A model generated the notes under the pieces. The model did no database searches. It saw only the letters and a program-made list of their open reading frames with translations, and had not been told where the DNA came from. DNA of 64,000 bases from Amoebophrya sp. A120 (Eukaryota; Protista; Dinoflagellata), in assembly GCA_905178155.1 (NCBI GenBank), contig CAJINV010000020.1:62001-126000 (forward strand), read 5' to 3'. Shown piece after piece: positions 1,519 through 49,800 of this stretch (position 1 is the first letter of the stretch; each line of letters starts with the position of its first letter). The position numbers were made by a program, and so were the translations under genes.

Positions 1519-4277
1519 TTAGCTCAGTTTTCGCTTAGTATCTACCCGCATCCATGAGTGGAGCAGCGCTGATGTCTCCTGCTCCGCCTCCGGAAAATCG
1601 ATAGCAGCGTCTTCTCGCGGCTCAGGATAGTAGTTCATTTGTTGGAGCGAAGAAGAATCTACTCCGGGCGTAGATGTTGTTGCATTTGTGCCGTTTACTT
1701 CGACGTTATTTCCCGTGGTACTGCTAGTATGATCTTCCCTATCTTCCGCTCGCATCTGCTCTGCTGCAGCTCCTGTAGAAGTAGTTGCGGCCGCTCCAGT
1801 CAAACCAGCTTCACCGCTCGCACCCGGAGAAGTACTGTCGTCCTCGACATCGACTATTTCATCAGCTTGTGCTGCTTCCCGCGCCGCACGACCACGGCCG
1901 CTGTTCTGCTTTTCACTTTCGCTTGAGGAGGACTTCCCGAAGGCAGCCCCCGCGGACTCCGTCAAACTGCCCGGGAAACCGACAGATGCACGCGGATCCG
2001 ATCTAGTATTGAAGTTGATGCTGGTGTTCTTCTGAGCTGCAGTGCTGCTACTCGCCGGCTCATTTAATAACGCTACGTCTGCCTGTTCCTCTTCTTCGTC
2101 ATTCGCATCCACCGGGACCACCACGGTAGTTCCCTGGTAGAAGTTCGGGCCAGTTTGTCGATTACCGAAGAAGGACGCTCGGTTTTTCGAAATCCGCACC
2201 TCTGCCTCGATCGACTGCTGCGTCACGATTGCGCCCTGGGACTGCTGCAGCAACACGTGGTCGTGCAAGATATAAGCCGCGCAGAGCGCTGTGAGGTGGA
2301 TTCCCGTGGGCCACCAGGAAAACGCGAACGCCGGCACGTTGAAGAGAAATCCGGCGAGAAAAATGCCGAACAGAACCCCAAAAGGCACCATCAGAAACTG
2401 CACGAAAACCACGTGCCCCTCGCGGAAATAGCCCGGTTTGTACAGATGCGCCAGTTCCTTCTTCTCGAAGTCGTTGAGGCGCAAGGCAGACTGGGTGTGC
2501 AGCAGCTTCTCCCCGATCTGGGCGAACGACAGAGACCCGCTTTTCTTCGACTGCCGCAGGTCGTTTTCCTCGGCTCTCTCCAAATCTAGAAATTCCTGCG
2601 GCTGAATCCGCAGCACCTCCCGCATGAAGATCCCGGGCAGGCTTTGGTCGATATTGAAAGGAAAGATCCCCCCTCCCCATACCGAAAAGGTGCGTCACAT
2701 AAAATTTGCGATGCTGATTTGTGGTCACAAATCGTGTCTGTCTTGCAAGAAGGCAACTCCGCAGGCTCCGCCGCATTATGGAGGCGGTTTGTGATGCAGT
2801 TTGGCCTACAGCGCAGACGTTTCTCATGCCAAGCGCCTAGGCCAAAACCTCTCTAATCAGGCTTGATGTAGGCCTGCCGTCACCTTCAGCAAGACAAATC
2901 TGATTTGTGTACGCAAATCCAGCATCACAGATTTCCGCTTTGATATGGGGAGGGGGGATTTTTCTTTTCGATAGCCGATCCCGGTCAGCGCCACCGTGTT
3001 GATGCACATGCAGCCCCGTATCAACTGTAAAAATGTCTGGGTCTGGAAGATTGGAACTTGTGATGCTAACTTTGGACTCTAGAAAAATCTGTATTGCATG
3101 ACCAGCAAGAGGAGTCTAGTTTGTGCTACGCGGGGAGGGCGTTTGTCATGCGGAGTAGGCATCAGGAAGCCCTCTCAAAATCTGTGATGCGCGGTCGTGC
3201 ATTACAGACGTCCTGGGTCATGCAAAACATGCATGACAAATCTCAGAATCTTCCAGACCCAGACATCTTTACATTTGATACCCCGCCCCGTGAAGTGATT
3301 TTGGATGCCGTTCGTGATTCCGGTGAACACAACCCCCCAGGGGAAAATTGACGAGTCGTCCAGAAACGAGGAGAAATAGTGGGAGGTAGACAGGGATTCC
3401 AGCAGAACAGAAAGAATCGCGAACAGCATCCCGGCGTAGAACCGGTACGTGGTGACGTATTCGCTGACCGCCGCGCCCGCCACACAACTCAGCACGGCGG
3501 CGAGGGAATTGCGGGCGGGAATGTGCCGCGCGTCCGAGGAATATGCATTGCAAATATAATGTCTGGGTCTGGAAACTTCTGATGCAAGGAAGGGAATAGT
3601 GAAAACATTGTAATGCGCTGCCCAGCATGACGAGTTTTGCCGTGGTTCTGAGTTGCGTACTCCGCATGAGAAACTGCGTTTTTGCATGACAGACAAGAGG
3701 AGCTCTTCCTGGCCCCGCAATACAGACTGCAGAGTCATACCAAACTAGCATGACAAATCCCGCAATCTTCCAGACGCAGACTACATATTTGCATTTGATA
3801 AGGAAATGCGGTTCGCCATTTCCAAATCTCGGTCCTCCATGATCTCGTGCCAGTTGCCCGGGCGAAAGTCGTCACTGATGCTGACGCCCAGCTTGACCAG
3901 GTTGCCCGTAATCGTGCCGGAAAAAATCCCGTACCGCCACAGGTACACCACATTGCAAAACGCGGCCGCGCTGGCGAATAGAAAGGTCAGAAACCAAAGC
4001 TTCTGGGCGAGGTTGCGCGACCACCTGAGGTTTGGAAGAGAGCAGGAAGAGAACTTATTATGGATACAGTTTTTATTTGATCACTTTGCTTTTGGTTTTG
4101 ATTTTGTTACGCCTACTCAACAAACACGTCATGCATCGATACAATACACGAGCGAACGCGGGGACGACTCATTCAATATTTTTTCATTTTCAGTACTTAC
4201 CTGTTATTCGCGTTCGAAAACAGCAGATGCTGGAGCTTCCCGGGCTTCACAATCGGGTGATAGATGTCGTCTACCAT
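1519..4277 (-). CDS. DUF1275/YoaK-family membrane protein; 1 GT-AG intron (4025-4200) and 3 introners
   Basis: Spliced model MVDDIYHP...AAAFCNVVYLWRYGIFSGTITGNLVKLG...GITNGIQNHFTGRGCMCINTVALTG...; the F-S-x-x-TGN-LG and G-x-QN...T-x-x-x-TG motifs are typical of DUF1275; frame is continuous after removing the elements. Confidence 0.75.
2652..2973. mobile_element. Introner, family B (TATC..GAAAAATCCCCCCTCCCCATA TIR)
   Basis: ~30-bp TIR; flanks gtcga/gccga (1 mismatch); removal of element+5 nt gives TGI(D/G)QSLPGIFMR in frame. Confidence 0.9.
3019..3280. mobile_element. Introner, family A (TATCAAATGYAAAAATGTCTGGGTCTGGAAG TIR)
   Basis: TIR; perfect flanks ccccg/ccccg; removal gives FTGRGCMCIN. 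Confidence 0.93.
3542..3800. mobile_element. Introner, family A
   Basis: TIR; flanks aggaa/aggaa; removal gives EMANRISSDARH. Confidence 0.93.
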
Positions 4278-6849: not shown

Positions 6850-9800
6850 CTATTCCGGCGGCCTGACGTGTGCTAAATACGTCAGAAAGCCCGCGGACAA
6901 CTGCGTCCGATGCTGTCTTTGCTTTTCCAAGAACCCCCGGAGCATCAATTGCCAATGTGTGAAATTCGGGAAGACCACAGAAAGCACGCTTTCTGCTTCT
7001 TCCTCAGGCGAAGGGATAACGTCAATACTGGAGTCCAGTCGTGTGCCCAGAATATATGAAGGAGCGGAATTCATCATCCCAGAGACCACCTCCGCTGGGG
7101 ATTGATTTGGATTTCTCGACAATTTCTCCTGCAGGATGTCGGTCTTTACCGTGTGGCAGCGGTTGAACTTGAATCTCAGGACCCAGTCATTTTCTCGTCG
7201 CGGGAGCGGCTCTCGTCGGGGGACTCGTGATTTGCTCTTGCTTTGGTTGTTCCGTCTGCTGTCTTGTTGAAGTTTTAGAAGCTCTTCGTCTTTTTCTGTT
7301 TTCCCTTCAATATTTCTGGACGTTGCGCGGCTTCTTTCGGACGTCGTGTCTTCATTATCTGTCCCAATATCGACCGAAGTGTCGACAGTATGGAGTTTTG
7401 GCGTTGCGTCTTCGAAAGTAGAATCTTCTCGCTGCGACTGCTCGCCCTCGTCTCCTTCATCTGCAGTGGTCTTCACGACGTGTTCCTTACTAGTACCAGT
7501 GCGTAATTCATCCGAGCTTGCAGATGTCAAGCGGCCTGCAGTTGCAACAAGCCGCACGACCTCCTGCTCTGCTACTTCCAATTTTTTGATGTTTCCGTCT
7601 GCATCGAACAGCTCGTCCCCATCTTCGGGTGGATCAAGACCTAGTTCGGCCAAGCTTGATGCTGGCGTTGCATCTTCCAGGGAGTTGTGAGATTCTTGCT
7701 GCTCCCCAGTCGCTTGGCGTTCTCTGGAAGGATGCTGGTGCACAGTAAAAGAAACAGACGTCGACTCTTCTTGACTTTGGTCCTGCCTTTCTGCGTCGGC
7801 CGCAAGGAACGCGTCCAGTGCGTCGTCGTCAAGCTCCTCGATGTTGCGGAGAGTCGCGAGCCGGCTACTTACCTGTGAGTGCGAGGACGATTTTCAAGTG
7901 GTTTACTTTTCGGTACAAGAAGGAGAACTTGTTCGTACAGCACGTATTTATGCATATGCTAACATACTAGGCGACGTCCTTTATCACTATAAAAGAACAG
8001 CATCCAACTAACTAGTACTGGGTCCATCGCGTCAGCCTCCAAAAGGTTGCTCGGGTAGTTGGAACTTTCCTTTTGTTCTGCACCATTCTCCTTCGACGAT
8101 CCAGTCCTGACTTCGATCGCCCGACTCACGACCGGCGGGGTGATTCCGCCCGTGCTGCTGGCTCCGTCGCCCAGCAAACCTATATCAACTGCAAAAAAGT
8201 CTGGGTCTGGAAACTTGTGATGCAAGTCCGTGAACAATAAAGTGCTCTGTCATGCGCCGCCAAGCATGACAAGTTTTTTCGTAATTCTGTGCTGCGTATT
8301 TCGCATGAGAAACTGCGCTTTTGCATGACAGGCAAGAGGGCCTCTTGGTGGCCACGCAATACAGAGTGCAGAGTCATGCTAGACTAGCATGACAAATCTC
8401 GCAATCTTCCAGACCCAGACATTTTTGCATTTGATAACCTAGGTTTTGCAGCAGTATCTTACTAGTGTTGTCGTTGTAGTTTTTCGGGCGGGGCGGCGAC
8501 GGCGGCGGCGGCACGGTGGTGACCGCTAGGAGAGACCAGAACTCTGCCAGGGAGAAGCTCTTGCTGGGAAAGTAGTCAGACGGGAACTGGAGTTCCAGTT
8601 GCAAGATCGGCTCGACGAAGACGGGAACGTAGACGTCGTTTTTTACCAAGCACAGCACGAAGTTGTGGCCAACGTCGTCGAGAAACGCCGTCATTTGGAT
8701 TTTATCGTCTTTGATTTTTCCTCGGTCATGTTGTTCAGTTGTAGAGCCAGGCATTCTAGTACTAGGAGATGTAGACGTAGCTGCCCAGTTTGCGCTCACC
8801 TGGTTGGCTGGCCCGGATCGGGAGTGTGGAATGGAGAAATGATGGACGTATCAAATGCAAACATTTCTGGGCCTGGAAGAATGCAAGTTTGTCATGCTTG
8901 TCTCGCATGACTCCTACATTTGTCATGCACGTTACCCAAGCGCTCCATTTTTCTGTCATGCAGAAACGCAGTTTGTCATGCAGGATAGGCAACACCTAGA
9001 AGCCCAGAAACTTGTCATGCTGAGCCAGCACTTGTGGCCTCATCATGATACGCCACCAAGCATCACAAGTTTCCAGACCCAGACATTTTTGCAGTTGGTA
9101 GGACGTGGAAGAAGTCGATAGTGCTTGATGTGGTTCCACCCCCACTTGATGTTCGAGAACCTCCTGAATGCTGGAAGGGATAGCCTTCTTTGGGAATTTT
9201 CGTCGCTTGCAGGCTCTCGATAGAAGTACTGGTCGTGGAGATTGCAGCAGCTCCACCCGGAGCCGTCGAGCTACCGTCTACTACTTCGGTCAGAGAGGAA
9301 GTTGTCGGAGCGGAAAGAAGAAGATTATTCGACGAAACAAAATGACAGGAAGCAGAAGACGAATTAACAGCGCTGGGGGTTGCAATCCCTGATCCCACCA
9401 TTTTCCCCACCGGCGTCCCCGTTGGCGTATTGACTTTTTGCAGAGTTCCCGGACTCGGCACAAACTTGTTGCTGGGCGTCGCCACTCGGCTCGCGGGAGC
9501 GAAACCAGCATGCTGGGATGATGATGGTCGTGCTTGTTGAGAATTACTATGTGCACCACCTGTTCCACCACCACCTCCGAGCTGCTTTATTGTAAGCTCT
9601 TGCTGGCTTGTCCCAGTGGTCTGCTCCTCTTTGCTTGTTTTTATTTCCGGTTGTAAAAACACCCGTGGCAGCGTCGGGGGTAGAGAACGTGCGGTCGCAG
9701 CTGCTCCCTTGTTGATGCCCTTGATCAGATACCGGTCCACCCCCCGCTCGGGAACTACAGGCTTTATTTCGGTAGGAGCTTTATTCTGATCTTGTCGCAG

Positions 9801-12800: not shown

Positions 12801-15800
12801 ATGATTCTTGTTCGCCTTCTGAATGTCAGGCGTGGTCCGATTCTGATGAAAAACCCCGTCGTTTTCCCGGGACAACGCAAATTGCTGCCAGATGCTCGTT
12901 GACGACGAACTCCCAGTGTAGGACCGCGTTTTCTTGTTCGATACACTTGCATTTGACGTTGATCCGCCGCCAATCATGGTGTCATTGCTCAGGACAACGA
13001 CAGCTGTGTTAGCGCCTGTGTTTTGCTTGTCACTTCTATCACCGTGTTCTTGTTTGCCAGGCGGCGACAACACCGCTCCTCGCGTCTTCGCCAGTTGTTC
13101 TGTGCCGGCTTTGTTTATTTCGGCGCCAGAGGAAGTGTGTCCCCCGCCGCCTACGGTCAAACTGGGGGACGACGGAGGCAGTAGGAGATTGGCTGCGGAT
13201 ATAACAGCGCCGTTTTCAAGAACTACATCTTCCTTTCTCTCTAGCACACTGCCGGTGTCAATGAACAGCAAGCTGCGGAGCAAAATCGTTCTCACGACGA
13301 ATGTCATGGCAATCTCGATGAAAATCTCGCCGAGGAGCTGCTGGGGCATGGTTTCCAGCATGTCGGTGATGAAGCTCAGCTGCTCGCTCCAACTTCTGTA
13401 CTGCTGCGAAATCTGCTGTTGTACTTGCTGCTGTATAGAAGTTGTGGAGGGGATCATGTTGCCCATGATGTTCATGCCCCCTCCTCCGGAAGTGGCACTG
13501 CTCGTTTTATTTAAACCGCTGATCCAAGTAGAAATCAGAAGCAAAAATATCTGGGTCTGGAGGAATGCAAGATTTGTCATGCATATTTCTCATGACCCAT
13601 GATGCCTGTGATGCATGACATAGCATCGCAGACTTTTAGAGGCCTTTGTGATACCTCTACCGCATGAGAAATGCCCTATCCGTGTAGCACAAATTGTACC
13701 CCTCTTGCTGGTCATGCAATACAAATTTTTTTAGAATCCACAGACAGCATCACAAGTTGTGACCTTCCAGACCCAGACATATTTGCATTTGATACTAGAG
13801 GCATTAGAACAACTTTGCCAGCACGCAAACAGCTGCTCGCGGAGAAGATATCCTGTGCAAAAGCATCGCACTCCTATAAATGCAAGTCTTGCATTACAAA
13901 TTTTTTTCTTGTAAATCCACATGACAAATTTTATTTCTCATGCTGAGGAAATTTGTAATGCATTTATACGAGTACGATGCTTTTGCAATGCATAGCAGAA
14001 CACACGTGTCGATGAACAGTGCACAGCAGTGGGCGCGAAACCAGGACGACATAGTCGGGCTTAGCAGGGGTTTGCTGGTGACAGTGACTGAGGCTGCGGT
14101 TGTACTTCCCATAAGCAGTTCCTCCGACGTTTTGACGTCCAGCTCTTGGAGCAAATTTAGCACGTACAAGCACGCGTGCTTTGCCTTGGTATTGATCTGC
14201 GCTGTCGGACAGTGGATCAAGGCGATGCTCTATCCCATGGAAAAACGTCCCCACCAAATTTGCATGCTCACAATGTTTCTCATGCAAAGCCCCATGGCAG
14301 GCATTTTCTAGTCGCGTTTCGGGATTTGTATTGCTCCAATCAGCATAATAGCCTATGTCTGTGATGCTGCTGAACAAGCTAAACAGGGCGACAACTACTA
14401 GGCCAAACTTGTCATGCGTAACAACCAAAGCTGGCTGATTTGTATAGCAGATTTCCCTTCTTGACTATGTGGTGGGGACGTTTTTCCTCAGGATATGCTC
14501 TGCGTGAAAACCGGAAGTTTCGCGATTACCTCCTGCTCGTTGAAAAACAGTTGGAAGCAGTCCATCTCATTCAACGCAAAAGCATCGCAATCCTAATTGC
14601 AACATTGCATGACAAATCTACCTTCTTAGCTGAATCAGCATTACAAGCTTGATAGGATTCTTTTTTCTGAGAAAAATTTGTGATGCAATTACTCCTAGTA
14701 CGATACTTTTGCAATGCATAAACCTCCTCCGTCAGCAGCTTCGCGAAGTTGCACAGCAAGGTCGCGATGCTGGCCACGATCTGTATTGGAATTGGTATTC
14801 TTGACCTTGCGACGCATTACAATTGCTTTATTTTATTTCTCTGCATGGTTTGACTGGCAATGGCTTCCAGCATAATTCGCTTTCAAAAATAGGTCTTCAA
14901 CCGACGATCTACGCAGGCGTGTGCTGTGAGGTGGTCTCTTTTTGCAACAACCGATCACAGCAGCTGCAAATAGAAGAAGAGGAGAAAATTGCAATCATCA
15001 ATGGTATAGTAGTTAGAATCAATACTTTTATACGTCGGCGTCCTGGCCGCAAAGTCGCAAGTCGACCATGCAGACCTGATTGAGAAAGAAGTTTGACTGC
15101 AAAAAGGTCATCAGCACGGACCCTGGTACCGCATGCGTCAGCAAGATCTGGGTTGTCTGGATGATCTGGTGCCACACAGGCTCCAGGGCGGAAAACGGGA
15201 GCTGCGGATAAATAGCACCAGTAGAACTACTGCTGTCTCTACTTCTTCCGGGATGATGATCTCTTGAGGTCGTTGTGCTGCTACTGAAGGGTGGCAGTGC
15301 AGCATTTCCTGCTATCCCTAGCATAGATCTGGAAGTACTTGTGTTTGTTCCAAATGTTGATCTTCCCAGCATCTGAGTCGTTGGGTTTGTTTCGTTTCCA
15401 CCGGCAAGCAGTGCCGTTCGGTCGTCGACTGCGGGAAGCAGACATAGATTCTTCAGACTTCGGAAGAACTGGTAGCGAACCGCAAGTTCGAAAACCGGCC
15501 CCGTCTCGATCACTGGACCGGTTAGCCCTGATTTTTTTTTGCATGAACATGAACAAAGCACTGGTCTTCGTACAAGAACAAAACTTTGTGGTCGTCCTCG
15601 TATCTATCGAGGAAGAAGATCATGTGCCTATGTAGTACTAGTCCATACATATTACAACTCCTGCAGCTGCAAGACTCCATAAGCATGTATAATTGTACCT
15701 TTCGCCTTCCAGCTCCTCTGTGCCTCTTGCTGCTCGTGGAGCAGTAGTTCCCCTACCTTTTGGATTGCGTGCACCAAATCCCGCGCGACTTATCGCGAGG

Positions 15801-27941: not shown

Positions 27942-28060
27942 CAATCCGGCGTTTGAAGTTGGTTCGAAATATCCAATCCGCCGTTTGAAGTTGGTCCGAA
28001 AAATCCAATCCGCCGTTTGAAGTTGGTCCGAAAAATCCAATCCGGCGTTTGAAGTTGGCC
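27942..28060. repeat. 32-bp tandem repeat, ~3.7 units
   Basis: caatccgScgtttgaagttggtccgaaaaatc. Confidence 0.92.
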
Positions 28061-30085: not shown

Positions 30086-31471
30086 GGCTGTCGAAGTCTC
30101 CCATTGCCAACAAAAATCTAATTCACGACCTGGGGACCTGGAACATCCACATACAGATACAAGAACGGGTCCATAGAAGTAAAGATGATGAAGCAGAAGG
30201 AGAAGAATACAAACGCATCCCGCCAACAAGTAGAAGATGAAACCACAGCCACACGACTACACTGGAAGATCATGAATAAATCGAAGATAAAAAGGGACTC
30301 CTGTGAGCTAAGAAATCACCGAGATTTTTATCCGATCCCCTTCAGGAGCATATCGAGAAACGCGCGCACAGAGATCGTAGTGGAGTCGTGCTGCGAGGTA
30401 TAGTTCATCTAGCTCCAGAGTCGTGGTTGCCTGGTTCTTGTACTTCTAACAACTCCGCCCAAGCTTTACGACCTGTAGGGGTTTGTGAGCTTCTTCTTGG
30501 TTTCGTCTCTACCACGTGTGTCGTGAAAGTCCCGGCCCAACAGCGGATCCTCGCGTGGTCCCAGATTATCACCGCCACGTCGCACACTGTTTTTGAATTT
30601 TTTTCAATTCATCCTATTTCTCGCAAAAGATTTTTAGCGACCATACAACAGGAAGGGATTTCATCCTTGGGAGAGTGAAGACGAGCTGGTGCTGTCGCCC
30701 TACTCCTTGGTTTTATCTGTCGACCATGCAGCAGCTGTTTGACAACCGTTTTTTATGCAGTAGGGGCCATATGAATGGTGCGATGAAAACTGCCACGTAT
30801 TTCTAATCGTGCGCCTGGCACAAGAAACCCCTCCAGCGTGTTCCTTCACCCGTGCGGCGCCGGGAAGGGCAAGTTGCTCGCTGCTCGTAATCGAAAAGCG
30901 AGTTACTCCGTCTCATAATCGAAGGAACGAAAAGCAAAGAAAAAAAAGCCACAACATGATAAAAGCCGACCTTAACCTACGACAAAGCGCTAACTCTAAA
31001 GATAAAAGCCGAAAGAAGTAAACAACAGCGAACTCGTGTGTAATTTGTTGCACGTGCGTTGCATCATTTGCATGCATCTTTAGACGTATCAATGCTGTTC
31101 TTCTCAGTCGCTGATGACAAAAATCCTTACACTCTGTATTGACTATTGAAGCTTACCCAGCGACTACTGCTCCTGGTCCTGTTTTTCGCGGTGGCTTCTT
31201 CACACAGTTAAATGCCCAGCTACGTAGGTAAATTCGATTTGTTTGAAGAAAGATAGCACTTTTTATGCGGCCCGCTAATCGTGTCGCGGCTAAGTAAGCA
31301 GCTTCGGTTAAACACCGTCAGCACTGAACGCATTGTAGCTCCACGACTTGCCTTGTTTGATATGCAAAGCTATTTTAATCTCCTCGTCGGTGTGGAAATA
31401 CTTGTCCCATATCATGGTAAGCGAAAATCTACTGCCTCTCTGTTTCTTCCGTATAAAAGTATCTAAGTCTA

Positions 31472-37400: not shown

Positions 37401-40400
37401 TCTGCAACAAGCTGCTCACGAGCACGTTGACAGAGATTAGAGAGGGGAGCAGACAGAATTCCGAAATTGTTAGGTTGTACACTTGTTCTATTAATTCAGC
37501 ACCAGAAAATTGTTCCATCGACCTGTAGACGTAAAGTTACCTTGCTCGACCTCTTGCAGGGTTACAATGTCTGCGGCGATGGAGCGAATCTCCTGCAGGA
37601 TTATATCCCACGAAGAAACTGCTTCACTGTGGTGATTTTGCAAGATCTGCATCACAAGTTTGTATACACATGACACAGAAAATTTGCCATGCGCGCTTCC
37701 CAAGGGAAACGCTTGATGAAAATCCAATGTCTTGCAGGTGTAGCAAGGCAAACACTTTGGTGTTTCGTTTTCTGCATTACAAGTTCACAGTGAAACAGTT
37801 TTTTCTTGCCATAAATCAGGTGCTTTCGGTAATCCCAAGCGAGCACCCAGGGTTCCGCGTAGGGGTATTGAGCTTCGTTGCAATACTGATCGGCAAGGAT
37901 GTTCCAATTCATCAACTGTGAATTTTTTTTTGATGAACTAGTAAAATGGTACAACTTTCTTACAACTTCAACTAAGTACAAACTGGCGTCCGCCCGCTAA
38001 AAGCATCTGCATACTCATTCGACGTTCTTGCTGGATGAAAAGTAGGGAAAATGATCAACATGCATAATTACGACGGCGATACGATGAAAACTCATACCTT
38101 GAACTGTTGATGAAGCCAGGCCCCGTCCATCGAATAAGCTGTCATCATCGACCGGGTCCTGGCTTCATGGGGTTTGTCCAGCACCGTGCCCGTGATGATG
38201 CTTTTGCTCTCCCCTGGTTGCTCCTCCCCTTCCGGCCGCCAGGGGACAACCTAAAATAAACATGGTATTACATTTTTCCGCTTGTAGTTAAGTTAAGAAC
38301 AACAACAATCTCAACCTCATGGAGTTTTGCCGTGCGGTTTCTTGTCCTTCACTTCTTTACCTCGAAGGCATTAAACCATACTTCGTGCAACAGAAAAAGC
38401 ATCATGTACGTCCAAACGCAGAGGGTGGCCGACGTCGCGTAGCGTTGGGATGTATTTCTTCTCTGTGCCAACAACCTCCCAAGTGCCTTTGCTGTACACC
38501 ACGTGAGCCCAGAAGTCAGCTGTTTTTGATAGTATGAACAAAAGTAAAAACTTTTTTTCATCATGTTCTTTTATACGTGGACGAAGAAAACTTACAGAAC
38601 TACACACAACCGAGACCAACAACAACAAAAGTAAATCTAATTATACAAGGTTCCGCGCACTCCGCCAGTCCCAAGGCACGAATGTCCGAGGTGGCCAGGG
38701 CGGAGCGGCACGACCACCCCTTGATGAGACATTCCTTGGAGCAGTAGGTCTGGTAGTTCTTCTCGATGGCCTGGAACCGGCCCATCTTGTGCGGGTGAAA
38801 TATCGTGAGAAAAAAGTGTTACAGTTACACACTCTCGTGCAAGACAAGCAAGACAGACAAGCCCTGTCATGCAGGAAACGCGTGCCAGCCTCATTTCTTC
38901 TCTTATAGTCTGCGCATTACAAGTTTTCTTCATCTTCGCCATGCAGAGCAAATTTGTGATGCTAAAATTCCAACACATGTGTAACTGTATCACTTTTTTC
39001 CTTGGATATGAAAGTAGCAGCTTTTGATCCTCGGTCCCCGGCTCCAGATGTACGAAACCAGCCCCTCGCGTTCCTTTCCCGTTTTGTCCTCGAAGGGAAT
39101 GGTCTTTGCCTCCCCGGGCCGCGATATGTCCTGGAGCGCGACGTAGAGCGGAATCTCGTGGGCCACCACCGGCCGGTGCCCTTTTGTCAGCTGCACCCGT
39201 GTCGCCCGCACCGGCGCGCGGTCGCCCGGCGGCGGCTTCTCCTTCGCCCGCGCCATGGGGTCTACTAGAGACGCTGTACTAGAGGAAGACACAGCTCCGG
39301 TTGTAGTCGTCCCTTGCAGATGTATCATATGAAAAAACGTCCCCACCCCGTAGTCAAGTTGGGAACTTAGCAACACAAATCCAGAGGTTTTGGGATCCAC
39401 GCATGACAAGTTGCAGTCCGTAGTCTAGTGCATGTTAGCAAGGACAACCGAATCACAAACCCATCTGCTTCTGCTGTTTACAGCATTACAAATTCCAGAA
39501 GGCGATTGGAAATACCTCTCATGGAGATGCGCATTGCAAATCTTACTGTAATCGCAAATCTGCATAACAACTATGGGGTAGGGATGTTTTTACTCAGGAT
39601 AAGATGCTGATAGGAGCCCGCGGACGGGGATGCGCCCCCGACGTATCAAGAGGAAAGATTCCCCCTCCCCATATCGAGACGAAGTTTCTGATGCTGGATT
39701 TCCGTACACAAATCAGATTTGTCTTGCAGTAGAGGACTGCGGGCATATGTCAAGCCTCGGCCGAGAGGTTTTGACGTAGGCGCCTAGCATGACAAACGTG
39801 TATGCTCTAAGCCCAACAGCATCACAAACCGCCTGCAAAATGCAGGGGGCTCTCTGGACTTGCCTTCTTGCAAGACAGACAAGATTTGAGGTCACAAATG
39901 TGCATCACAAATTTTCAGACGGATGCGTTTTCAATATGGGGAGGGGGGATTTTTCTTTACGATACGACGTCCTGGAGAAGTTGTGCGGTCGAAGTACTGC
40001 AGGATATCGTGGACGGGGCCTCGCTGATGTTGCTGCTGTACTTGTTAAAGTTGTTGGACGCTTGGCTGCCGCCCCCATGCGTCGAACCTCCTTGCTGATT
40101 TTGCGATATGCCGCGCTCGAGCAGCATGGACGAGGACGTTTTGATGTTGAACTTGAGGCTTTGCAAAATGTCCACCGGCGGCGACTGCGCCCCGTTACTA
40201 TTGATGTTGCCGTTTGTTGTTGTTGCACTAGTTCCGTTTCCGGGCAGGAGATGTGTGTTATTTCCTGAAATTGTGGTACTTGCTGATGTTGTGGAAGTTC
40301 CTGGACCTGGACCGGCACCGGGTATGTTGATCGGGTTATTTGCATTATTTCCCCCGTTGCCCGGAGGTCCTCCTCTTGTTCCACCGGCGGAGAGGTTGAT

Positions 40401-40746
40401 GTGATTATCGACGAGAGCGCCCTTTTTAAGATTCGTGCCTCCGTTCGATGACGCGGTGCCTTGACCTCTCGTCGAAGCCGAGGCACTGGTGCTCGATGAA
40501 CAGCTGCTGTCTATCACAGGAAAAAGTGTTAACGTTATACGGTTTTGTTTCATTCATAGATTGCAAAAATGCATGACAAATTTTGCCTAGCATGCATGCT
40601 AAGCATCACAAATTCAAATTTTGGCACGGTTTATTGGGATGCATTTCTGTATCACAAATTCCGTTAACGTTAACACTTTTTCCTGTGATACTCTCCTCGC
40701 TGGTATCATGACTGCTAGCCGAGGAGGTGTGGGGGTAGTTATTCAT
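31472..40746 (-). CDS. CCR4: CCR4-type deadenylase (EEP domain; no LRR seen, Cys/His N-terminal domain) with PAM2 motif and long low-complexity tail; 9 introners plus canonical introns
   Basis: WNILADQY...YPY...LAWDYRKHLILQEI...ADIVTLQEV, EGCATFWK, CNTH, CGDFNSTP, YTNYTENFKGTLDYVWFS, PSDHIAL; frame continuous after element removal. N- and C-terminal extents depend on these joins. Confidence 0.9.
33678..33983. mobile_element. Introner, family B-like
   Basis: Imperfect TIR; flanks acgtg/acatg; removal gives QSH(T/M)SQIPQLMAQQ. Confidence 0.82.
34501..34763. mobile_element. Introner, family A
   Basis: TIR; flanks ttttc/ttttg; removal gives FLR(Q/E)NGEKRKK. Confidence 0.9.
35536..35854. mobile_element. 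Introner, family B
   Basis: TIR; flanks cacgg/cgcgg; removal gives SENRAKALAAKK. Confidence 0.87.
36032..36283. mobile_element. Introner, family A
   Basis: TIR; flanks cgcga/cgcga; removal gives LLAVLAISKVD within the CCR4 catalytic domain. Confidence 0.94.
37604..37813. mobile_element. Introner, family E-like (GAARAAACTGYTTCACTGTG)
   Basis: TIR; flanks gatta/aatca; removal gives the conserved YRKHLILQEI. Confidence 0.85.
38801..39008. mobile_element. Introner, family E (TATC..GAAAAAAGTGTTA TIR)
   Basis: TIR; flanks tgaaa/tgaaa; removal gives SCYFHPHKMG. Confidence 0.92.
39323..39601. mobile_element. Introner, family B2
   Basis: TIR; flanks agatg/agatg; removal gives SYQHLQGT. Confidence 0.9.
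39644..39964. mobile_element. Introner, family B (opposite orientation to 2652-2973)
   Basis: TIR; flanks cgacg/cgacg; removal gives LQDVGGASP. Confidence 0.93.
40512..40690. mobile_element. Introner, family E
   Basis: Perfect 25-bp TIR tatcacaggaaaaagtgttaacgtt; flanks ctgtc/ctctc; removal gives TSE(E/D)SSCSS. Confidence 0.9.
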
Positions 40747-42646
40747 CGCCTGATCCTCACTCAGTTGCCGCGTCCCGTGCCGCGGCAAGAAACGACCCGA
40801 TGTCTTCTTGGAGTTCGTGTTTGACTTTGAAGAAGTTGTTCTAGAAGTTTTGTTGATACGGGTTTAGTTGGTGACGAAGAAAGATCTTGCACAACTTGTT
40901 CATCATTCGACGTGAACAGCACGGCGACGATATTCCACTCAGGAATCTATCGTATCTTCATCTTTTTCGCCGATTTTCCCTATAGAAATAGCGACCTGAC
41001 TACACGGTGCTGGCTCACGAGACGTAGCTGCGGTCGACGGAGCTGGTCCAAGGTTGCGGAAAGCACCAGCGCCCTGCAGGATGAGGACGAAGCAAGAAGC
41101 TTTCTAGTGGCGGTGCTCCACGACGACCGTGCAGCCCTGCCCCTGCTGCTCTACTTGTTCTCGCTACTGGTTACGGCTAGGAGTACAGTACATCACCAAC
41201 CTCGCTGCTCCTGCTGCTGCCCCCGAGGCTGTATGTCGCACTCAAAACTTGGCAAGCCACGGCAGACGCAGCCTCGGCCAGCAAACTGCAGCGCGCGGAA
41301 GACGATGATCCTCCGGCTCCGCAAATCTGCCCGACAACTCGTATCGGAAATACCACTTCTCCCCGGCTGGAAGAGGCGGTGTGGGGAGTTGAAGATATCA
41401 AAAAAAATGTAAAAAAGTTTTTTTGTGGTTTTTTGGTTTTTTGTCTTTGCTCAACAAGTTGTGTACAGGGTTTGTTCTTATTGTTTCGTTTGAATCGAGG
41501 GACGACGCCAATGTCAAGACAATTGCAGCTCCTGCGTAGTTGGTCCTGGCCAGCTAGCAGCGGCACACAGAAAGAGGTGCCCAAACTCCTGCACCGATGA
41601 ATTCTTCGTGGTGCCGGAAAAGAATCGCCGACCAATGAAGAAGGGTCGTGGAGGTCTTAGAAGATTCCAGCCCGAAGAGTCGGCACAAGAGGAGCAGATG
41701 ACATCGTGTCAATGATCAAAATAAATCTGCTTCAATCTTCTACAGTTCTTATTTCTCTGGAGTCTACTTCTTGAAGATGTTCCGGACATTCATTTTTGCC
41801 AATCTACTATCCCTAAGACAAATATTTTTACCTCCCGCGACGAGACTTTCTGAAGCCGTGTTTTTCGCAGTCAGAGCGTCGCGGCTTGAAGAGACAAGTA
41901 AGAAGCTGTATCTGCTCTTAGCAGTCCTGATGTACTTTCACTTCAATTCCGTTCTCAAGTTTTTGTACCTTAGCGTGATTTTGAAAGATGAAGAGTAAAA
42001 GCTGTAAATGCGTCAGCTAGACAGTTGTTGTTCTCGTGCCTTGGTATTCGAGCATTCAAATTAGAACTCGCCACGTTTGATGGTTGTACTACGTTGCTGA
42101 CGCTGCTGGTTTTTGAGGAAAGCTTTCACTCCGCATTCTTTTGCTCGTTGCGCTGGCAGCTACTGCAACCAGAAAGTACTTAATGTTGAAAAGTCGACTT
42201 CGCATCTTTCTTCATACAAACAGCGTTTTCTTCTCCAACTGAAGCTGCATCACGCATGGTGTAAGTATTTTTAGAGGTTAGTCTCCATGACCATGGCCTG
42301 GCGCGACTTAGGCAAATACTGTCTTTCTCAGGTTTGAACCGGTGCCGTCTAAGTCTAGTACTTTGACTCGTTGATAGCATTGCACACTGAGTGTTGGATC
42401 ATTTCCAGGCGCTAGTATAAAGGCCGCACCGGTTGCAGCATCGGTATTGCCATCTAGCAGGCACTTCAGTACTCTTCGCAGAGACAAGTATTTTTGACGA
42501 TGCTGTTCCCGCCCTGGCTCTTGCACTTCTACTTCTTGATGCACATAGTTTAGAAGATAGAAGAACAAGAATCATCTTTATCACCCGGGACAATTGCAAC
42601 TATCGTGACGCATGGAACACTCGAGGATCATCAGCAGCAAAGCAGG

Positions 42647-45448
42647 TCAAAGCAAAGCATTAGATGCCATGCCGTCTAGCCGCAACAACATCGAGGCTAC
42701 AGTAGTATTACACGCTGGCGATCTAGTGCAAGAATCCGCCACGTGCTGCAAAAATGCTGTAATTTCTTCAACCAAGAAGGCAGAGGTTTGTTGCTCCTCT
42801 ACTTCGGGAGAAGTTCCAACTTGATGTTCCTTTTTGATACTGGAAAATGTTGAGTCATCCTCGTTCTTGACATCTTCATGCTGTCCAACGAATTCCTTAA
42901 CATTCTGCGCTTGTTCTTCTTGGGAACCACTTTTTTTAGCTGTTTTTAAAGTTCTTGTCCACCGTTCCAGCGTCGCGAGGATCAGCCCTCTCGCACACAA
43001 CAGACCCTCGCTGTCCCCGGGCATCTGTTGAATCAGGTCCTGGTGGTGCGCCGCGCCAGGGACTGGAAGGATCTTGACTACGTCATTGTGCTCGTTTTTC
43101 TGGTAGAAACAAGACGAGGAGGTCGAAGTGTTCGATGTTGCATTCTTGGTGGAACTTATTTCGTCGCCGCGCTCGCGAAGGTTTTTGTGCGTGTAGACGT
43201 GCCGCATCAGACTGGCACTTCTTTCGGAATGTTCGTCAGAATTTGCTGCTGTATCAAATTCGAAACTTCCGACCCGCCAGGGGTCAAATTCGCCGTCAAC
43301 AATGATCGCCTTTGTCAGTGGCAGGTTCCTCCCGATGTCGCGGGACCCGTAGTGCACCGGCAGAAAATCCGGACGCGTGTAGACATTGTACACCTCTTTG
43401 CAGGTTTTTTTCAACTGCTCCAGTGCGGCGAAGGTTTCTGGCGGGTAAAAACCCAGAAAGTCGGAGGTTAGCGGCTGCATCGGGAGCTCGGAGCACGCCT
43501 GCACGTTCCACGGCTCCATTTCCAGAACTTTATCAACGTCCTTTACTATATCAGCCGAAGCGGAAGTTGTAGATGCAGAATTTAATTTGCTGTCGTGAAT
43601 AAAATCTGTTCTCCCGAGCAGTTCCCTGGTCGTATTCTTGCAGAAATCCGTCCCGACGTACACGTCCACAGCGGCGGCCAGCTGCGACAAGAGTGTTTCT
43701 TTGTCAGCGGTTTCAGCTTCAGCTGCCTTGGTGTAGTTCTTTTTCGCAGGATCACGTTCTTGATCAGAAGGAAGTACATCGAGATCCTTCGCCTTCCCCG
43801 AAGCAGTAGATGACGTAGAAGTATTAAACGAACGACCACCTACCAGCGCTTCACACGCCACCTTCACGGGATCCGCCGGCAGTGGTTTCGTGAGGAAAAA
43901 GGGAAACGGGTAGTTCTCCATAGCGAGGGTGGACAGCGCGCCCTTGACGTAGTAGTACAATTGCGCGGTATTTGGGCTCTTTTCGCAGGTACGAAAAATC
44001 TTCGCAAGATCCAGCGTTTCTGTGGACAAGTGCTCGGATGTTGGCGGTAGTATTGTTTTTCCTCTTGCACCACTACCGCTGGTCAGCATGATTTCTGGCG
44101 GAAAGACTAGATATGATTCAGGCTTTGCCTTTATTGCCTCTTGTTCTTTCTTCCTCGTCGCGACGACCAGCTTGCCGAGCACGTCCACACTTTTCAGCAG
44201 TGCGGACTGGTACGCAGCACCGCCGGCAAGCAGAAACGTGTGCACCACGGCTTTCCAGAATGACAGGGACTTGGAGATAATTTTCACATCGGTGCTCTCG
44301 TGCTGGGAGTGGTGGTCAACAACAGCACCATCTTCCCCGGCACGACCCCCTGCGTCCTCCTCGCTGCCTTCGCTGTGGTCCGTCTCTGTCGCACCATCCC
44401 CGGTTTTCTTAGGAATTATTACACCACTTAACGACGTTTTCGCGTCCTTATTTTGTACAACGCGCACCGCTCCGGCGCCAGTATAAGAATCCTCGCCCGG
44501 GACGAGATCTTCACCAGGACGAGAGGTCTTGCTGCTGACCAGACCTGTTTTCGAAACCCTCGTAGTTCCTACTCCTGCATCAGATGACCCGCTCAACGCT
44601 GCCGCATACGGACGAGGAGTTGTTCCGGAGAGGCTGTCGCTCCCCGTTCCCCCTGCTAACGCTTTGGAGGCACCACGACCAGTGGTCCGCCCACTAAGAC
44701 CAGGGTAGAAGTCCACCGGCGCGCTGGACAGGACCGCCCCGCTCGTCAGGTGCGGATACTTGACGCGAAACCAGCCGGCAAGCATGCCCCCATAGCTGCC
44801 GCCAAACACAAATACGGGACTGCCAACCGCGTTTCTCTTCTTTTGGAAGAACACGAGAAATCGCGCGTAGTCCGCCAAAGCTTGCTCGATCGTCAGTAAT
44901 TTGGTGGCATTCGTGTTTGTTTTTATTTTTGTTCGGTCGATTGTATAATTATAGAGGTAGTTCTTCTTGTCAGCTTCTTCTTGGTCTCCTGCTCCTTGTC
45001 CGAAAACTGCAGAGTTGTTGTCCAGAGTAGACTGCCCGTACCCACGGTGTTCGACGAAAAGAATTAAGGCCTTCAATTTTGGTCCGATACTGGAGAACAG
45101 CACGGAGGTGTCCTTGTAAAACCGGTCGATAGGGCCCTCATTCCCCAGGTAAAAAAGAATGGGGCCTTCATCCAAAGCCCAAAACCCGTCGTAGACGAGG
45201 TATCGTTGGTTAAAAGTCGTATCTGTATCGAAGGTAAAGTGGTCCTGCAACTGCGGAAAAAATCCCACTTCGGTCGGTTTTGGAACTTCGGTCGATGAGG
45301 TTTTGGCCTCCCCGGAGGACAAGCTAGTACTCGGGAGCGCCGCCCCTGCTGGTAGCGAGCAGACACACAACCGCGGTAATAAGCCGATGAAACACACAGA
45401 AGATGAATAAGGCACAAGTAACAACGGTCCACGCGTGGATGGCCTCAT
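42647..45448 (-). CDS. Serine peptidase family S28 (lysosomal Pro-X carboxypeptidase/DPP2-like), intronless
   Basis: QLQDHF...FNQRYLV, GPILFYLGNEG, EHRGYGQS, EQALADYA, GGSYGGMLAGWFRVKYPH, DPW, AAHHQDL; N-terminal signal-like segment. Confidence 0.93.
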   Translation of the reverse strand: MRPSTRGPLLLVPYSSSVCFIGLLPRLCVCSLPAGAALPSTSLSSGEAKTSSTEVPKPTEVGFFPQLQDHFTFDTDTTFNQRYLVYDGFWALDEGPILFYLGNEGPIDRFYKDTSVLFSSIGPKLKALILFVEHRGYGQSTLDNNSAVFGQGAGDQEEADKKNYLYNYTIDRTKIKTNTNATKLLTIEQALADYARFLVFFQKKRNAVGSPVFVFGGSYGGMLAGWFRVKYPHLTSGAVLSSAPVDFYPGLSGRTTGRGASKALAGGTGSDSLSGTTPRPYAAALSGSSDAGVGTTRVSKTGLVSSKTSRPGEDLVPGEDSYTGAGAVRVVQNKDAKTSLSGVIIPKKTGDGATETDHSEGSEEDAGGRAGEDGAVVDHHSQHESTDVKIISKSLSFWKAVVHTFLLAGGAAYQSALLKSVDVLGKLVVATRKKEQEAIKAKPESYLVFPPEIMLTSGSGARGKTILPPTSEHLSTETLDLAKIFRTCEKSPNTAQLYYYVKGALSTLAMENYPFPFFLTKPLPADPVKVACEALVGGRSFNTSTSSTASGKAKDLDVLPSDQERDPAKKNYTKAAEAETADKETLLSQLAAAVDVYVGTDFCKNTTRELLGRTDFIHDSKLNSASTTSASADIVKDVDKVLEMEPWNVQACSELPMQPLTSDFLGFYPPETFAALEQLKKTCKEVYNVYTRPDFLPVHYGSRDIGRNLPLTKAIIVDGEFDPWRVGSFEFDTAANSDEHSERSASLMRHVYTHKNLRERGDEISSTKNATSNTSTSSSCFYQKNEHNDVVKILPVPGAAHHQDLIQQMPGDSEGLLCARGLILATLERWTRTLKTAKKSGSQEEQAQNVKEFVGQHEDVKNEDDSTFSSIKKEHQVGTSPEVEEQQTSAFLVEEITAFLQHVADSCTRSPACNTTVASMLLRLDGMASNALL

Positions 45449-46899
45449 TTTCTTTTTCGTCGTGCGCTTTTGCTTTGATAACTTAATATCACAGAGGGCA
45501 TATGAAATTTAGGAAACAGAAAACACCCCGCCTTGGCCTTATCATTCAGGATGAAATAATACTCTGCTTATTCTTGAAAAAGCGCGACACTACGGCTTCT
45601 TCTAGTCTTAGTGAGGACACTACTAGAAACATAATCGCCTGTAGTTGTAGTCCCTGTAGCAGCCTGTCTGTCAGGCTCGTCACCTATTTCGACGTGAGTA
45701 GAGCATTCTTCTGAACACTGATCTGTCGCGTTGTAAGTTCTTTTCGGACAAAATTGAACAAACTTTGTTGGAGCTATCTCAACTACGTCACGTCGCACCA
45801 TAATATCCCGTTCATGCTGTGATTCAGTTCATTCATCGTCATGCAGCTGTGTGTTTCCCTTAATAAGAGGCACATTGATTTACTTTTGATTTGATTCTAC
45901 TTTTACTTATATGCCATGTAGTCCCCAAAAACTTGCTTCGTCTGCGATCCTAAATAACAGGGAACCTCACGCCGTTTCAACGAAACGGCACGAACCGCGA
46001 TATTGAAACCGTATCATTCACCGTCTGAGTATTGGTTTAGGGAAAATGTCAAAGTGGCGTCAGCAAGAGAAACACATTTTGCGATGAAGTGCATAAGGAG
46101 GATCCTTGCTCGCACCTGCTAAACTATACAGAATAAATCTTGCGACACTACTATGATACATAAAGCTTTACATGCTTCTATCCGGTGCTATAATTTTTCA
46201 GTTTAACTTTAAGCTACACACATTCACATTCTTCAAAACGCTGCATTTATTTTCCACCCGATAGATTCAAGTACATTTACAACCCTAACCAAAACTCGAA
46301 GTTACAACATAGTTTTTTCCCCGAATTTTCACGCCGCAGCCGAAGAGGGCGAAAACCATCTTCAACTAGTACACCAACTTGCGTTAATAAAGAAATTGCT
46401 TTCATCTATTATTGCGTCGTTCGATTTTTTGTGTCTTTCTCTTTTCCCGCAAGAAATCTCTGCTGGAGAACGAGAACGCAAGCCAGAAGGAAAAACATAT
46501 AACTTACCACCAAAAGGCTTTGAAAATGAAAGAATTCATACCGCACACACACGTGCAGTCGGTCTTCACGGCATTAATCATACATTCCCACACTACCTAG
46601 CAAAGACCAACAATTATCTAAAAATTCGAATTGCAGCAATCGTGGTACACTATCAACAAAATCTATCATCCACTACGCTCCTCTATGCTCGAAAAATCAT
46701 GCATTCGATGAAAAAGTTCTCCTTGTCTGGAGGCTTGCTTCTACGGAAGGTTGTTCTTTAGATTTCTATTCGTCATCGCTCGTCATGTCATGATGGTAGC
46801 CGCAATGCAGAATTTTTACTGACATCACGCACATATCAACAAATTTATTGCCTTTTTCCCCTGACAATATGCGAATACGAATAGGTGTAGATATATTGC

Positions 46900-49800
46900 T
46901 TATTTTCCTGATAAAGTACTCATTCTGTACTTGTAGTCTAAGCGGAAATCGAAATTCGAATCGAAAAAATCATATTTGCTCATAATCCGTCCTGTTCGCC
47001 GACATATCCTATCGGGATCCAGGTCTTCAGACTGTAGGCGACGGCATATGGATTGCAAATATCCCTGGGTGTGGAAGAATGCAAGTTTGTCATGCTTGTC
47101 TGGCATGACTCGAGAGTCTGTGTTGCATAGGCACGAAAAGGGGCTCTTACCTGTCACGCTGCAAGAACGCAGTTTGCCATGCGGAATACGAAACACATGG
47201 CAGCCAAAAAATGTGTCAACATGCATAGCTGCGTATTGCAGTGCGTCTATCATTTCTTTTATAGCATTACAAGTTTATTCCAGATCCAGACATATTTGCA
47301 TTTGATACGGCGTTCACCCGATTTACTATTTCGTGCGTTCCTGCTCGTTTTTCGTTTTCCTCGCTTAGTTGAGGTAGAGGAAGACGTACGATCCACGTAA
47401 GGCAGTCGTGTTGAGGAGGAGTAAGAGTAGTTCTTGGCGAGACGACCTGTAGGTGATCGTCGTCGTCGAGGTAGCACGATTTGCTTCGAATACCACTTTA
47501 GTAAAAATGCATGATTAAGATTTTTATTTTCTACGAATGATCCCGAAAGAATGTGGTAAAGGAATGAATATCTATAGGGAAAACAAACCGCAACAGGGTG
47601 AGAACTCGTCAGCTCTACTGTACGAGAAACAACACAGCAGCGAGCTGCCTGGCTCCTGCCGAATTATACTTTCTTACCCAAAGATAATTTGCACATCTCG
47701 TGGACTGGCGCGTGGCTGGTTCCTGCTCTCCCTCGTCTCGCGTCGTTCCTTCGCTTGATCTCCGGCACCGAGGTAGTACCAGGAGCGGCTATCAAAAGTA
47801 AAAATGTCTGGGTCTGGAAACTTCTGATGCGGGGTGGCGTCTCATGATGAGCCTACAAATGCTGTCTCAGCATGACAAGTTTCTGAGCTCCTAGGTGTTG
47901 CCTATTCTGCGCCACGAACTGCGCTTCTGCATCGCAGAAAAACGGAGCTCTTGGGTAACGTGCATGACATTGGCGGTCTACCGGCAGGACGTCCGGCAGG
48001 ACGTAGACGGACGGGTAACGTGCATGACAGATTTTATGCACTATCCGCAGATGGGTCATCCTGTGGGATGAGCAATTCCTTCTGCGGAGAAGTTAAGGCG
48101 CCCGAATCATGGAGCGCCAACCCCTCTCCTGCCAGAAGAAAGCAGAAGCAAGGGTCTCTGTCCGTTTATAGGCACGAGACCGCATGAACCATCCGCAGAC
48201 CAGTGCAAAACGATACATCCCCCGAGGGGGTGAACCAGGCTGGGAGGGTGGGGAAAACTAACAACAGGCCCGAGGGCCATCTTCACACACATACAACTTT
48301 CTCAGGTTCTGGCTACCGTACAACATGCTAGGGCGGGGCCGATACATAAAATACCGCCCGCCCAGCCTCAGCCTTGGCTCACAGGCTCGCAAGACTGCTG
48401 CTGCCCGGGCATACATTTAAGAGTCATGCCAGACAAGCATGACAAACGTGAATTCTTCCAGACCCAGACACTTTTACAGTTGATAGCGTCGTTCTTTCGC
48501 ATCTCCGGCACCGAGGTACCAGCGGCTATGCATTGCACATATGTCTGGGTCTGGAAGATTCCGAGATTTGTCATGTTGGAAGGCTAAGGGCAGGGCGTCC
48601 CATTCGTTTATAAACTTAAAACGGTAGCCACCTACCCAGCAAACTCTGAGTGGAACAAGCACGGGCAAAGCGATTTGTCATGCAGTTTTTCAAGCTCCGC
48701 CAGGTCTGGAATGCAGGGCCTAGCATCACAGGTTCTGCAGCCCATTGGTGATGCCTATTCATTCTGCATGAGAAATGCCCCCTCAACATGGCCAGAAGTG
48801 GGGACCTTTTGCAAGTCATGCGAACCTGTACAAACGGGCACCCCTGACGGTACGGGCCCTCTTATACACAAAATGTACATGAGTAAACACGAAAAGTGTA
48901 CAAAAAAAGACCGAAATTGTAGAAAAGAGAAGACGGACGGTCCTGTGCAACCGGGCACCTCCGAACACGGATTTGTATAGAAAATAGCGAAAAAAGAGAT
49001 GAAGTCAGAGCTGGAAGATGTGAGTGGATAGCGCGCGCGCGCGCGACTTGATGTGAGTGGGAACACGGGCGCTGCAGAGCAGGGCGGGGAAGTGAGGGCA
49101 AAATAGCTTGAAAGAGGGGCAAATGTATTCATCTAGGCGAGCGACGTGCTTGGCTATGGCGGCGCCGTGCTCACGAAGGCCTGTAGATCTATTGATGACG
49201 GGCCCGGTGGCTGCGCGCGGCGTGTACATAGTCATCATGCAGAGTTGGGCCCTGTGCAAAACGGACCGACCTGTTAATCACGGGGCCTCCGGAGATTACC
49301 GCCGGGCCTGTGTATTTGGTAACCCTGTACGGTGCGAACGGGTACCTTTGGCGGCACATACATTTGTATAAAAAATGCAAATTTCGTTTGTTTTCCAATA
49401 GCATAATTTGTTTGCAGGTGCCTGTTTGTACTGGGGGCCCCGTACAGTACGGGGGCTCCGTTTCCACTGATACACATGCAACACAGATTTTTGTATGATC
49501 CGCAACACGCATCACAAGTTCGGATTCTTCCAGACCCAGACATTTTTACATTTGGTAGCGTCGTTCTTTCGCATCTCCGGCACCGAGGTACCAACGGCGG
49601 TCGTCGTGGAACGACCAGTCTTCACGGTACTCCTACGCAGTAGTCGCAGCTTCTCGTCCTCGTCTGTATGCATTGGAAAGAACCACTTTGTGTCCGGGAC
49701 TGGATGAAAGTGAAACTCGTGTTGATGCTGCGTCGCGAGGAAAACACATTCGTAGAACGCCACAATTGACGGGCCACGGCTCAACAGCATCACAAAATTT

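Follow-up and report, generated by a model that had tools for sequence, protein, structure and literature searches.

The present analysis concerns 30 short insertions within genes of a 64,000-nt stretch of Amoebophrya sp. A120 DNA (contig CAJINV010000020.1; this whole stretch is hereafter called the window). It is very likely that these elements, which belong to the introners of this strain, are removed at the RNA level and that their removal is set by their symmetric ends. The curated elements are 146–1031 nt long and carry inverted ends of the TAT...ATA type flanked by a 5-nt direct repeat. This repeat is perfect in 15 of 29 elements and shows one or two mismatches in the other 14 (29 is the number obtained when the duplicate at 56471 is left out).

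The preliminary description of the window held that all host genes lie on the minus strand, and that several pairs of related elements are nevertheless placed in inverted orientation. Both observations were borne out. The host strand is indicated by P0002, an annotated protein, as well as by seven CT..AC introns found with RNA contigs and a loose end with poly-T at 20099; among the frames submitted to Pfam, matches were obtained only on the minus strand, and the minus-strand frame 1522–2646 is identical over 375 residues (100%) to an annotated Amoebophrya sp. A120 protein. Orientation was determined by the alignment of interiors, the check that had been proposed, after cutting 45 nt from each end. 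The scores in inverted and same orientation were, respectively, 237 and 31 for 2652–2973 against 39644–39964, 202 and 23 for 15791–16123 against 39644–39964, 167 and 23 for 3019–3280 against 13533–13794, and 185 and 24 for 8849–9100 against 47790–48485. All four comparisons thus confirmed inversion (167–237 versus a maximum of 25 in 200 shuffles), and the inverted placement of these pairs was also seen by BLAST. Two further families contain inverted members (16175–16480 versus 58682–59005, 132/21; 14231–14495 versus 39323–39601, 47/15).

A scan of a metagenome collection revealed at least 151 loci (about 570 estimated), nearly all of them on contigs JACKZZ01, whose elements belong to the same families (up to 95% identity) and which have no unique sequence in common with the window. 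Three matches in the viral collection and locus L039 were rejected as chance matches without element ends. The 79 flanked loci of this second assembly yielded 227 elements (199 unique), of which 174 were assigned a strand by a codon model trained on the window. Among the 135 elements assignable to a family, 65 are oriented as the reference and 70 are inverted, with a ratio of 23:24 in the largest group. The reading frame is open across the element in 58 of 65 cases in the reference orientation and in 60 of 70 inverted ones, which suggests removal in both.

Removal in the window was followed mainly in X1 and X2, two contig sets from one sample for which no differences from the window are listed, and which were treated as RNA because their contigs lack GT-AG introns. 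Joints were drawn from 33600–53599. This evidence is a contig consensus and speaks of presence only; raw RNA reads (X10) covered a single element, 21580–21919. X10 reads fell on one gene of the first region analysed, and X10 and X11 contributed 0 reads in the second. RNA coverage was low at 15791–16123, 13533–13794 and 8849–9100. Among the listed joints (15 of 29), six skip single elements as element+5 (the element plus one 5-nt repeat copy), seven are CT..AC introns, and the remainder are one joint skip of 47790–49557 and one nested insert. The tables of contig pieces and loose ends add the removal of 40512–40690, 53276–53468 and 53483–53745. One contig in each of X1 and X2 lacks both 34501–34763 and 36032–36283, which face opposite ways and are each missing as element+5; both orientations of family B leave one transcript. 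Orientation b of family A is represented by a joint at 35536–35854. At 21580–21919, X10 reads number 0 at positions 21767 and 21779 and about 235 to either side. A few sites of X10 do not match the window; it may come from another isolate and possibly lacks the element in its DNA. In the case of 2652–2973 (orientation a), removal is indicated by the annotated protein and by the lack of its own sequence in X1 contigs. The 133 reads of X9 were discarded as evidence, all of them lying on one element and deriving from another locus.

Of the 30 elements, 29 carry stops in at least two frames, and all 30 break the frame or hold in-frame stops. Removal of element+5 across three elements reproduced 544 of 544 compared P0002 residues, and the AT5.2 orthologue is collinear across 15791–16123, 16175–16480, 13533–13794, 13849–13994, 14231–14495 and 14568–14720 when element+5 is taken out. 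By a crude open-frame score, element+5 is better than +3 and +4 in 15 of 30 elements, most of the others being tied or within a few bases, and worse in three (15791, 47790, 48527). The claim of in-frame removal therefore stands for the element plus one 5-nt repeat, as judged from P0002 and the AT5.2 orthologue, with poorer scores at 15791 and 47790. The latter element (47790–48485) consists of a 251-nt copy that holds a nested insert of 445 nt; in RNA contigs it is skipped solely in combination with 48527–49557.

In DNA the elements are retained. X5, a DNA-like run from one sample that may be the source of the assembly itself, shows an even depth of about 30 where the sequence is unique; those of its contigs that are listed bridge seven element ends by at least 31 nt at a depth of 26–32, i.e. 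that of single-copy DNA. The elements are present in DNA at full depth, and rare element-free alleles may occur beside them.

The 30 elements are as follows (the family and orientation labels, such as A, B or alpha, are our own; the basis of each entry is given in brackets).
2652–2973: A1, family A, orientation a; mismatch between the repeat copies at sense position 4, own sequence missing from X1 contigs at 2856 and 2882 (alignment; annotated protein keeps the residue of the upstream copy).
15791–16123: A2, family A, orientation a; perfect 5-nt repeat (interior alignment; orthologue alignment crosses the junction).
21580–21919: A4, family A, orientation b (alignment; X10 raw RNA reads jump the element).
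35536–35854: A6, family A, orientation b; mismatch at sense position 4 (RNA joint 35530–35855, element+5).
39644–39964: A3, family A, orientation b (interior alignment; RNA contig pieces start at 39965).
56471–56791: A5, copy of A3 within an 835-bp segmental duplicate (BLAST).
59431–59754: A7, related to family A, orientation b, a weak call (interior alignment, frame score).
3019–3280: B1, family B, alpha (interior alignment; P0002 junction).
3542–3800: B5, family B, alpha (interior alignment; P0002 junction).
8183–8436: B6, family B, alpha (interior alignment, frame score).
8849–9100: B3, family B, beta (4870 and 623 nt open on either side once removed).
13533–13794: B2, family B, beta; mismatch at sense position 5 (alignments).
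34501–34763: B7, family B, beta; shares a transcript with B8, to which it is inverted (RNA joint 34495–34764; BLAST, and interior alignment by way of B1).
36032–36283: B8, family B, alpha; shares a transcript with B7 (RNA joint 36026–36284; fold z −7.7).
47047–47307: B10, family B, beta (RNA joint 47040–47307).
47790–48485: B4, family B, alpha; nested insert 47970–48414 (BLAST, interior alignment, RNA contigs).
48527–49557: B11, family B, beta; nested inserts, skipped jointly with B4 (joint 47783–49557; outer ends pair 28/30).
53483–53745: B9, family B, beta (RNA loose end at 53273 passes D3 and B9).
16175–16480: C1, family C, inverted to C2 (interior and orthologue alignment).
58682–59005: C2, family C (interior alignment, frame score).
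14231–14495: F1, family F, inverted to F2 (interior and orthologue alignment).
39323–39601: F2, family F (interior alignment).
51946–52376: F3, family F, oriented as F1 (interior alignment, frame score).
33678–33983: G1; mismatch at sense position 3 (RNA joint 33672–33984).
37604–37813: H1; mismatches at sense positions 2 and 5, sole upper bound on the cut (RNA joint 37599–37815).
38801–39008: I1 (interior alignment, frame score).
40512–40690: I2; mismatch at sense position 3 (X2 contig pieces stop at 40506 and restart at 40691).
13849–13994: D1, short (interior and orthologue alignment).
14568–14720: D2, short, degraded (frame score, orthologue alignment).
53276–53468: D3, short, 14 nt from B9; mismatch at sense position 2 (RNA contigs).

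A strand-symmetric automatic finder recovered 24 of the 30 curated elements with no extra calls, and gave 0 calls in three shuffles (first 30 kb). The direct repeat was perfect in 150 of the 174 elements of the second assembly. Terminal stems are predicted on both strands of the window elements, and in the two elements compared with shuffled sequences the predicted fold was more stable (z −7.7 for 36032–36283, and −5.0). With terminal inverted repeats (TIRs), a target site duplication (TSD) of fixed length, small size, many copies and either orientation, the elements agree with the definition of miniature inverted-repeat transposable elements (MITEs), and they probably entered the genes as small DNA transposons that duplicated 5 bases of the target. 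Introners with TIRs and transposase-like homology have been reported (Gozashti 2025); Farhat et al. 2021 (PMC7789003) found no cognate transposase in A120.

Ends of the GT-AG type are possible in only 4 of the 30 window elements, each time in a different register, and GT/GC...AG register matches number 12 among the 174. Since the interiors face either way without bias and no GT-AG register is common to the elements, the signal for removal must lie in the symmetric ends. In this respect the preliminary description was right. Its further argument, that polar splicing signals could not act in both orientations, is not supported: an element with TIRs has one 5′ end sequence and one 3′ end sequence, whichever strand is read. 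With both sequences unchanged by inversion, orientation is no guide to the enzyme, and function in both directions, taken alone, leaves the spliceosome a possible agent. In Polarella glacialis and Aureococcus, introner classes indeed function in both orientations with spliceosomal sites (bioRxiv 2020.10.14.339549).

Where the two copies of the direct repeat differ, RNA shows which copy was kept. In transcript sense, the upstream copy was retained in two cases at position 1, in three at position 2, in two at position 3 and in one at position 4, and position 5 came from the downstream copy (one case). The sole register common to these 8 RNA cases keeps four upstream bases, the intron being N, TAT...ATA, NNNN. 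A register prediction made beforehand for 2652–2973 agrees with the annotated protein (ninth case). A single fixed cut that lies 1 nt outside the stem on its 5′ side and 4 nt outside it on its 3′ side, polar to the transcript, is thus likely, although with so few cases we treat it as a lead and not as a result. Its polarity follows the transcript and not the element, because 2652–2973 and 35536–35854 face opposite ways and both keep upstream position 4. If cuts were independent, some common register would arise with a probability of 0.073 (8 RNA cases) or 0.043 (with the ninth), and a mirror-symmetric process fits at 0.016 and 0.008, respectively; without the case of the joint skip, which is a possible assembly collapse, the values are 0.069 and 0.016. 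Two other approaches gave little resolution: the mutation spectrum (10 versus 8 at positions 1–4, 0 versus 3 at position 5; Fisher p 0.21) and stop codons (17 mismatched cases, none decisive).

Under this 1+4 register the donors of the second assembly are GT (64), AT (47), CT (35), TT (26) and GC (2), and all 16 acceptor pairs occur, AG accounting for 14 of 174. The absence of a fixed dinucleotide in the elements, beside ordinary introns that are GT-AG in 9 of 9 cases seen in RNA, points to two separate codes. A hidden acceptor, considered because of G enrichment at repeat position 2, was rejected after checking the window elements. The register also predicts Thr, and not Ser, at the 13533–13794 junction, where the repeat copies differ at position 5; protein searches for this residue gave no match and a profile search retrieved a fragment and relatives only.

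We assign a probability of about 0.46 to the complete mechanism that we favour, in which transposon-derived introners are removed by a stem-guided RNA reaction apart from the spliceosome, with the 1+4 cut. The elements would stay in the DNA and be missing from RNA in either orientation; the paired TAT...ATA ends would bring the borders together as an RNA stem, a reaction apart from the spliceosome would make its cuts 1 base upstream and 4 bases downstream of these paired ends, and the exons would then be joined. The endonuclease/ligase type of reaction proposed in the preliminary description is a live option, in view of the lack of a boundary dinucleotide and the Euglena-like geometry; it was the appeal to orientation that gave no ground for it. 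In its widest form, that of a second, non-spliceosomal system of nuclear pre-mRNA splicing, which ignores boundary sequence, measures from the terminal stem and is convergent with that of euglenids, the proposal is tentative. If it is true, any insertion of these transposons would be harmless in either orientation, and pairing between the outer ends of neighbouring, compatible elements could lead to loss of the intervening exon. Several points weigh against a stem-guided reaction. No enzyme, circle or end chemistry was seen, and the register comprises 9 cases with one upper bound (37604–37813), based on contig consensus and one predicted gene model. On the transcript strand, G.U pairs are no commoner than A.C mismatches (168 versus 205 in the second assembly, after removal of L029, a false inner call among the 174; 47 versus 45 in the window), which gives no hint that selection acts on an RNA stem. 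Moreover, Farhat et al. (PMC7789003) found an inverted repeat of 8–20 nt in only about 30% (A120) and 11% (A25) of non-canonical introns, and in Fritillaria the U2 spliceosome is described as removing TIR-derived non-canonical introns (bioRxiv 2025.08.15.670264).

The last precedent (see also PMC11282704) favours an altered major spliceosome working without U1, which is a realistic possibility falling somewhat short of an even chance. The inverted end would supply a donor-like N-T-A-T on the 5′ side and the 3′ cut would be measured from the branch and not from AG, the branch point being, in either orientation, the adenosine 7 nt before this cut. According to PMC7789003, A120 has 83 of 89 spliceosomal proteins together with U2, U4, U5 and U6, with U1 not found; the two-way spliceosomal introners of Polarella (bioRxiv 2020.10.14.339549) likewise fit. 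Under the 1+4 register, T at +2 and A at +3 resemble local donors (GTA in 7 of 9), A occupies −7 in every one of the 29 window elements, though it lies within the inverted repeat, and the ends of family B read TTGAT. On the other hand, the 174 elements show no preference at +1, −1 or −2, a YTRAY branch-like motif is rightly placed in only 58 of them, and exceptions at +2, +3 and −7 lie in open frames, where splicing is presumed. In the predicted stem, moreover, donor and branch region would be paired with each other. Conservation of the terminal TAT appeared strikingly polar in the window, yet this failed to replicate in 174 other elements (5′ versus 3′ deviations 2 versus 6, 3 versus 2 and 4 versus 2).

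The two remaining explanations would place the loss outside RNA splicing. Internal eliminated sequences (IESs) of ciliates are short, transposon-derived inserts in coding DNA; their excision takes place at the DNA level, in a separate somatic nucleus, and leaves one repeat copy. The preliminary description suggested excision of this kind, programmed in some life stage, and the transposon-like ends with direct repeats are in keeping with it; besides, the DNA data come from one DNA-like run with 15 of 852 joint rows listed, which does not directly address element-free DNA. The window elements differ from IESs in being found in DNA contigs and missing from RNA. We consider DNA excision extremely unlikely, since X5 contigs run across seven element ends with the depth of single-copy DNA and the polarity of the cut is that of the transcript; the probability of the mismatch pattern under a two-fold symmetric DNA reaction is 0.008–0.016. 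No germline/soma nuclear split is known in this lineage, and such an excision would therefore be inherited. A hairpin with a short direct repeat is also the signature of template-switch artefacts, and all the RNA evidence is complementary DNA; the joints could thus reflect reverse transcriptase switching across the hairpin between direct repeats, with the real mRNA keeping the elements. This is very unlikely: the elements break the frame or hold stops, yet the proteins are collinear with the orthologue, 0 reads lie inside 21580–21919, and a stalled transcriptase would carry the downstream copy, whereas positions 1–4 come from the upstream copy in 9 of 9 cases.

The element class itself has already been published for this strain. 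Farhat et al. 2021 (PMC7789003) described A120 introners with an inverted repeat that opens with TAT and continues through seven variable bases into a stretch of A, with direct repeats of 3–5 nt, in a genome where >60% of introns are non-canonical and supported by RNA-seq. The window elements agree with them in organism, TAT-N7-A ends, 5-nt repeat, repeated families, non-canonical ends and absence from RNA, i.e. in every feature compared. The differences are that in the text consulted the splice position relative to the hairpin is called variable or unknown and orientation is not discussed, whereas here one polar cut fits all informative cases and orientation is unbiased. Insertion in either direction is expected of a TIR element; the observation is real and part of a known system, but the conclusion of the preliminary description does not follow from its reasoning. 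For Amoebophrya, neither orientation independence nor a fixed cut was found stated in the literature searched, which left most subscription papers, the images of figures S19–S25 of Farhat et al. and the datasets of Gozashti 2025 outside its scope; these images and datasets may touch on the point. Both properties touch on a question open since Farhat 2021, namely how >60% non-GT-AG introns are removed with no detectable U1 (PMC7789003). Orientation independence confines the signal to the element ends, and a fixed polar cut amounts to an exact substrate model, specifying the branch site (A at −7), the circle junction and the content of a reporter; it would also let gene models be placed exactly.

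Comparable introns are known from other lineages. The nonconventional introns of euglenids share a proposed MITE-like origin, paired ends (a predicted feature in the window elements), slidable direct repeats and lack of GT-AG (PMC12501133; PMC11282704), as well as a longer unpaired 3′ stretch and coexistence with ordinary introns, and in Euglena they are reported to leave as circles, not lariats (review PMC11282704). The euglenid signature N3-CDG...CH'G-N5-6 is absent here (TAT/ATA, offsets 1 and 4), the euglenid introns show an exon purine, and the lineage is unrelated; the window elements are thus analogous, and not members of that class. In Fritillaria borealis non-autonomous DNA transposons gave rise to non-GT-AG introns genome-wide (bioRxiv 2025.08.15.670264; PMC11282704), but with preferred ends AG-AC and AG-AT, a conserved U1 and a U2 spliceosome reported as necessary, in contrast to the lack of end preference here and of a U1 found. 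In Polarella and Aureococcus, too, one family gives introns either way; in their 5-nt TSD class the last TSD base and the first element base form the donor (bioRxiv 2020.10.14.339549). Those introners have GH...AG sites and an orientation bias, neither of which is needed or seen in the window.

Some side observations concern the structure of the elements. Nested inserts occur at 47970–48414, 48576–49474 and 52070–52280, and a contig of another copy lacks 47970–48414; elements of up to 1031 nt are still gone from RNA. Probable degraded or partial elements, which carry shared internal motifs and are outside the counts, lie at 49734–49995, 50620–50880, 52640–52890 and 53820–53860. Two shared 9-nt internal motifs have 50 of their 56 occurrences within listed elements, on both strands. 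The segment 56421–57249 is an 835-bp copy of 39594–40425 (96.6%), element included, bounded by near-identical 30-bp direct repeats (56393–56422 and 57248–57277), and is a DNA-level duplication, not a retrocopy. The gene-poor region 24200–30160 holds tandem arrays (units of 54, 32, 110 and 241 nt), large inverted repeats (28500–29900) and three dispersed repeats of 40–55 nt; no coding signal was detected on either strand of the 24000–28000 tile. The JACKZZ01 contigs (L001–L151) are a resource for insertion polymorphism if orthologous loci are compared.

Other observations concern neighbouring elements and their transcripts. At 47740–49600 two family-B elements of opposite orientation (B4 and B11) interrupt a tandem 36-nt coding repeat at equivalent positions, and their mismatched flanks are identical. 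Both elements are skipped in RNA contigs together with the unit between them, and their outer ends pair at 28 of 30 positions, versus 27 and 23 for each element's own ends; the joint skip may be a true co-excision or an assembly collapse. At 8183–9100 the outer ends of neighbouring family-B elements likewise pair 28/30, around a 412-nt exon, and the outer flanks form no direct repeat. The region 33600–41800 is a single long transcript that contains seven GT-AG introns and nine elements or more; it has a weak PAM2 match and what we take to be a CCR4-like nuclease domain. Finally, at 53469–53482 two elements are separated by 14 nt (9 net), and this micro-exon is present in an RNA contig from which both of them are missing.

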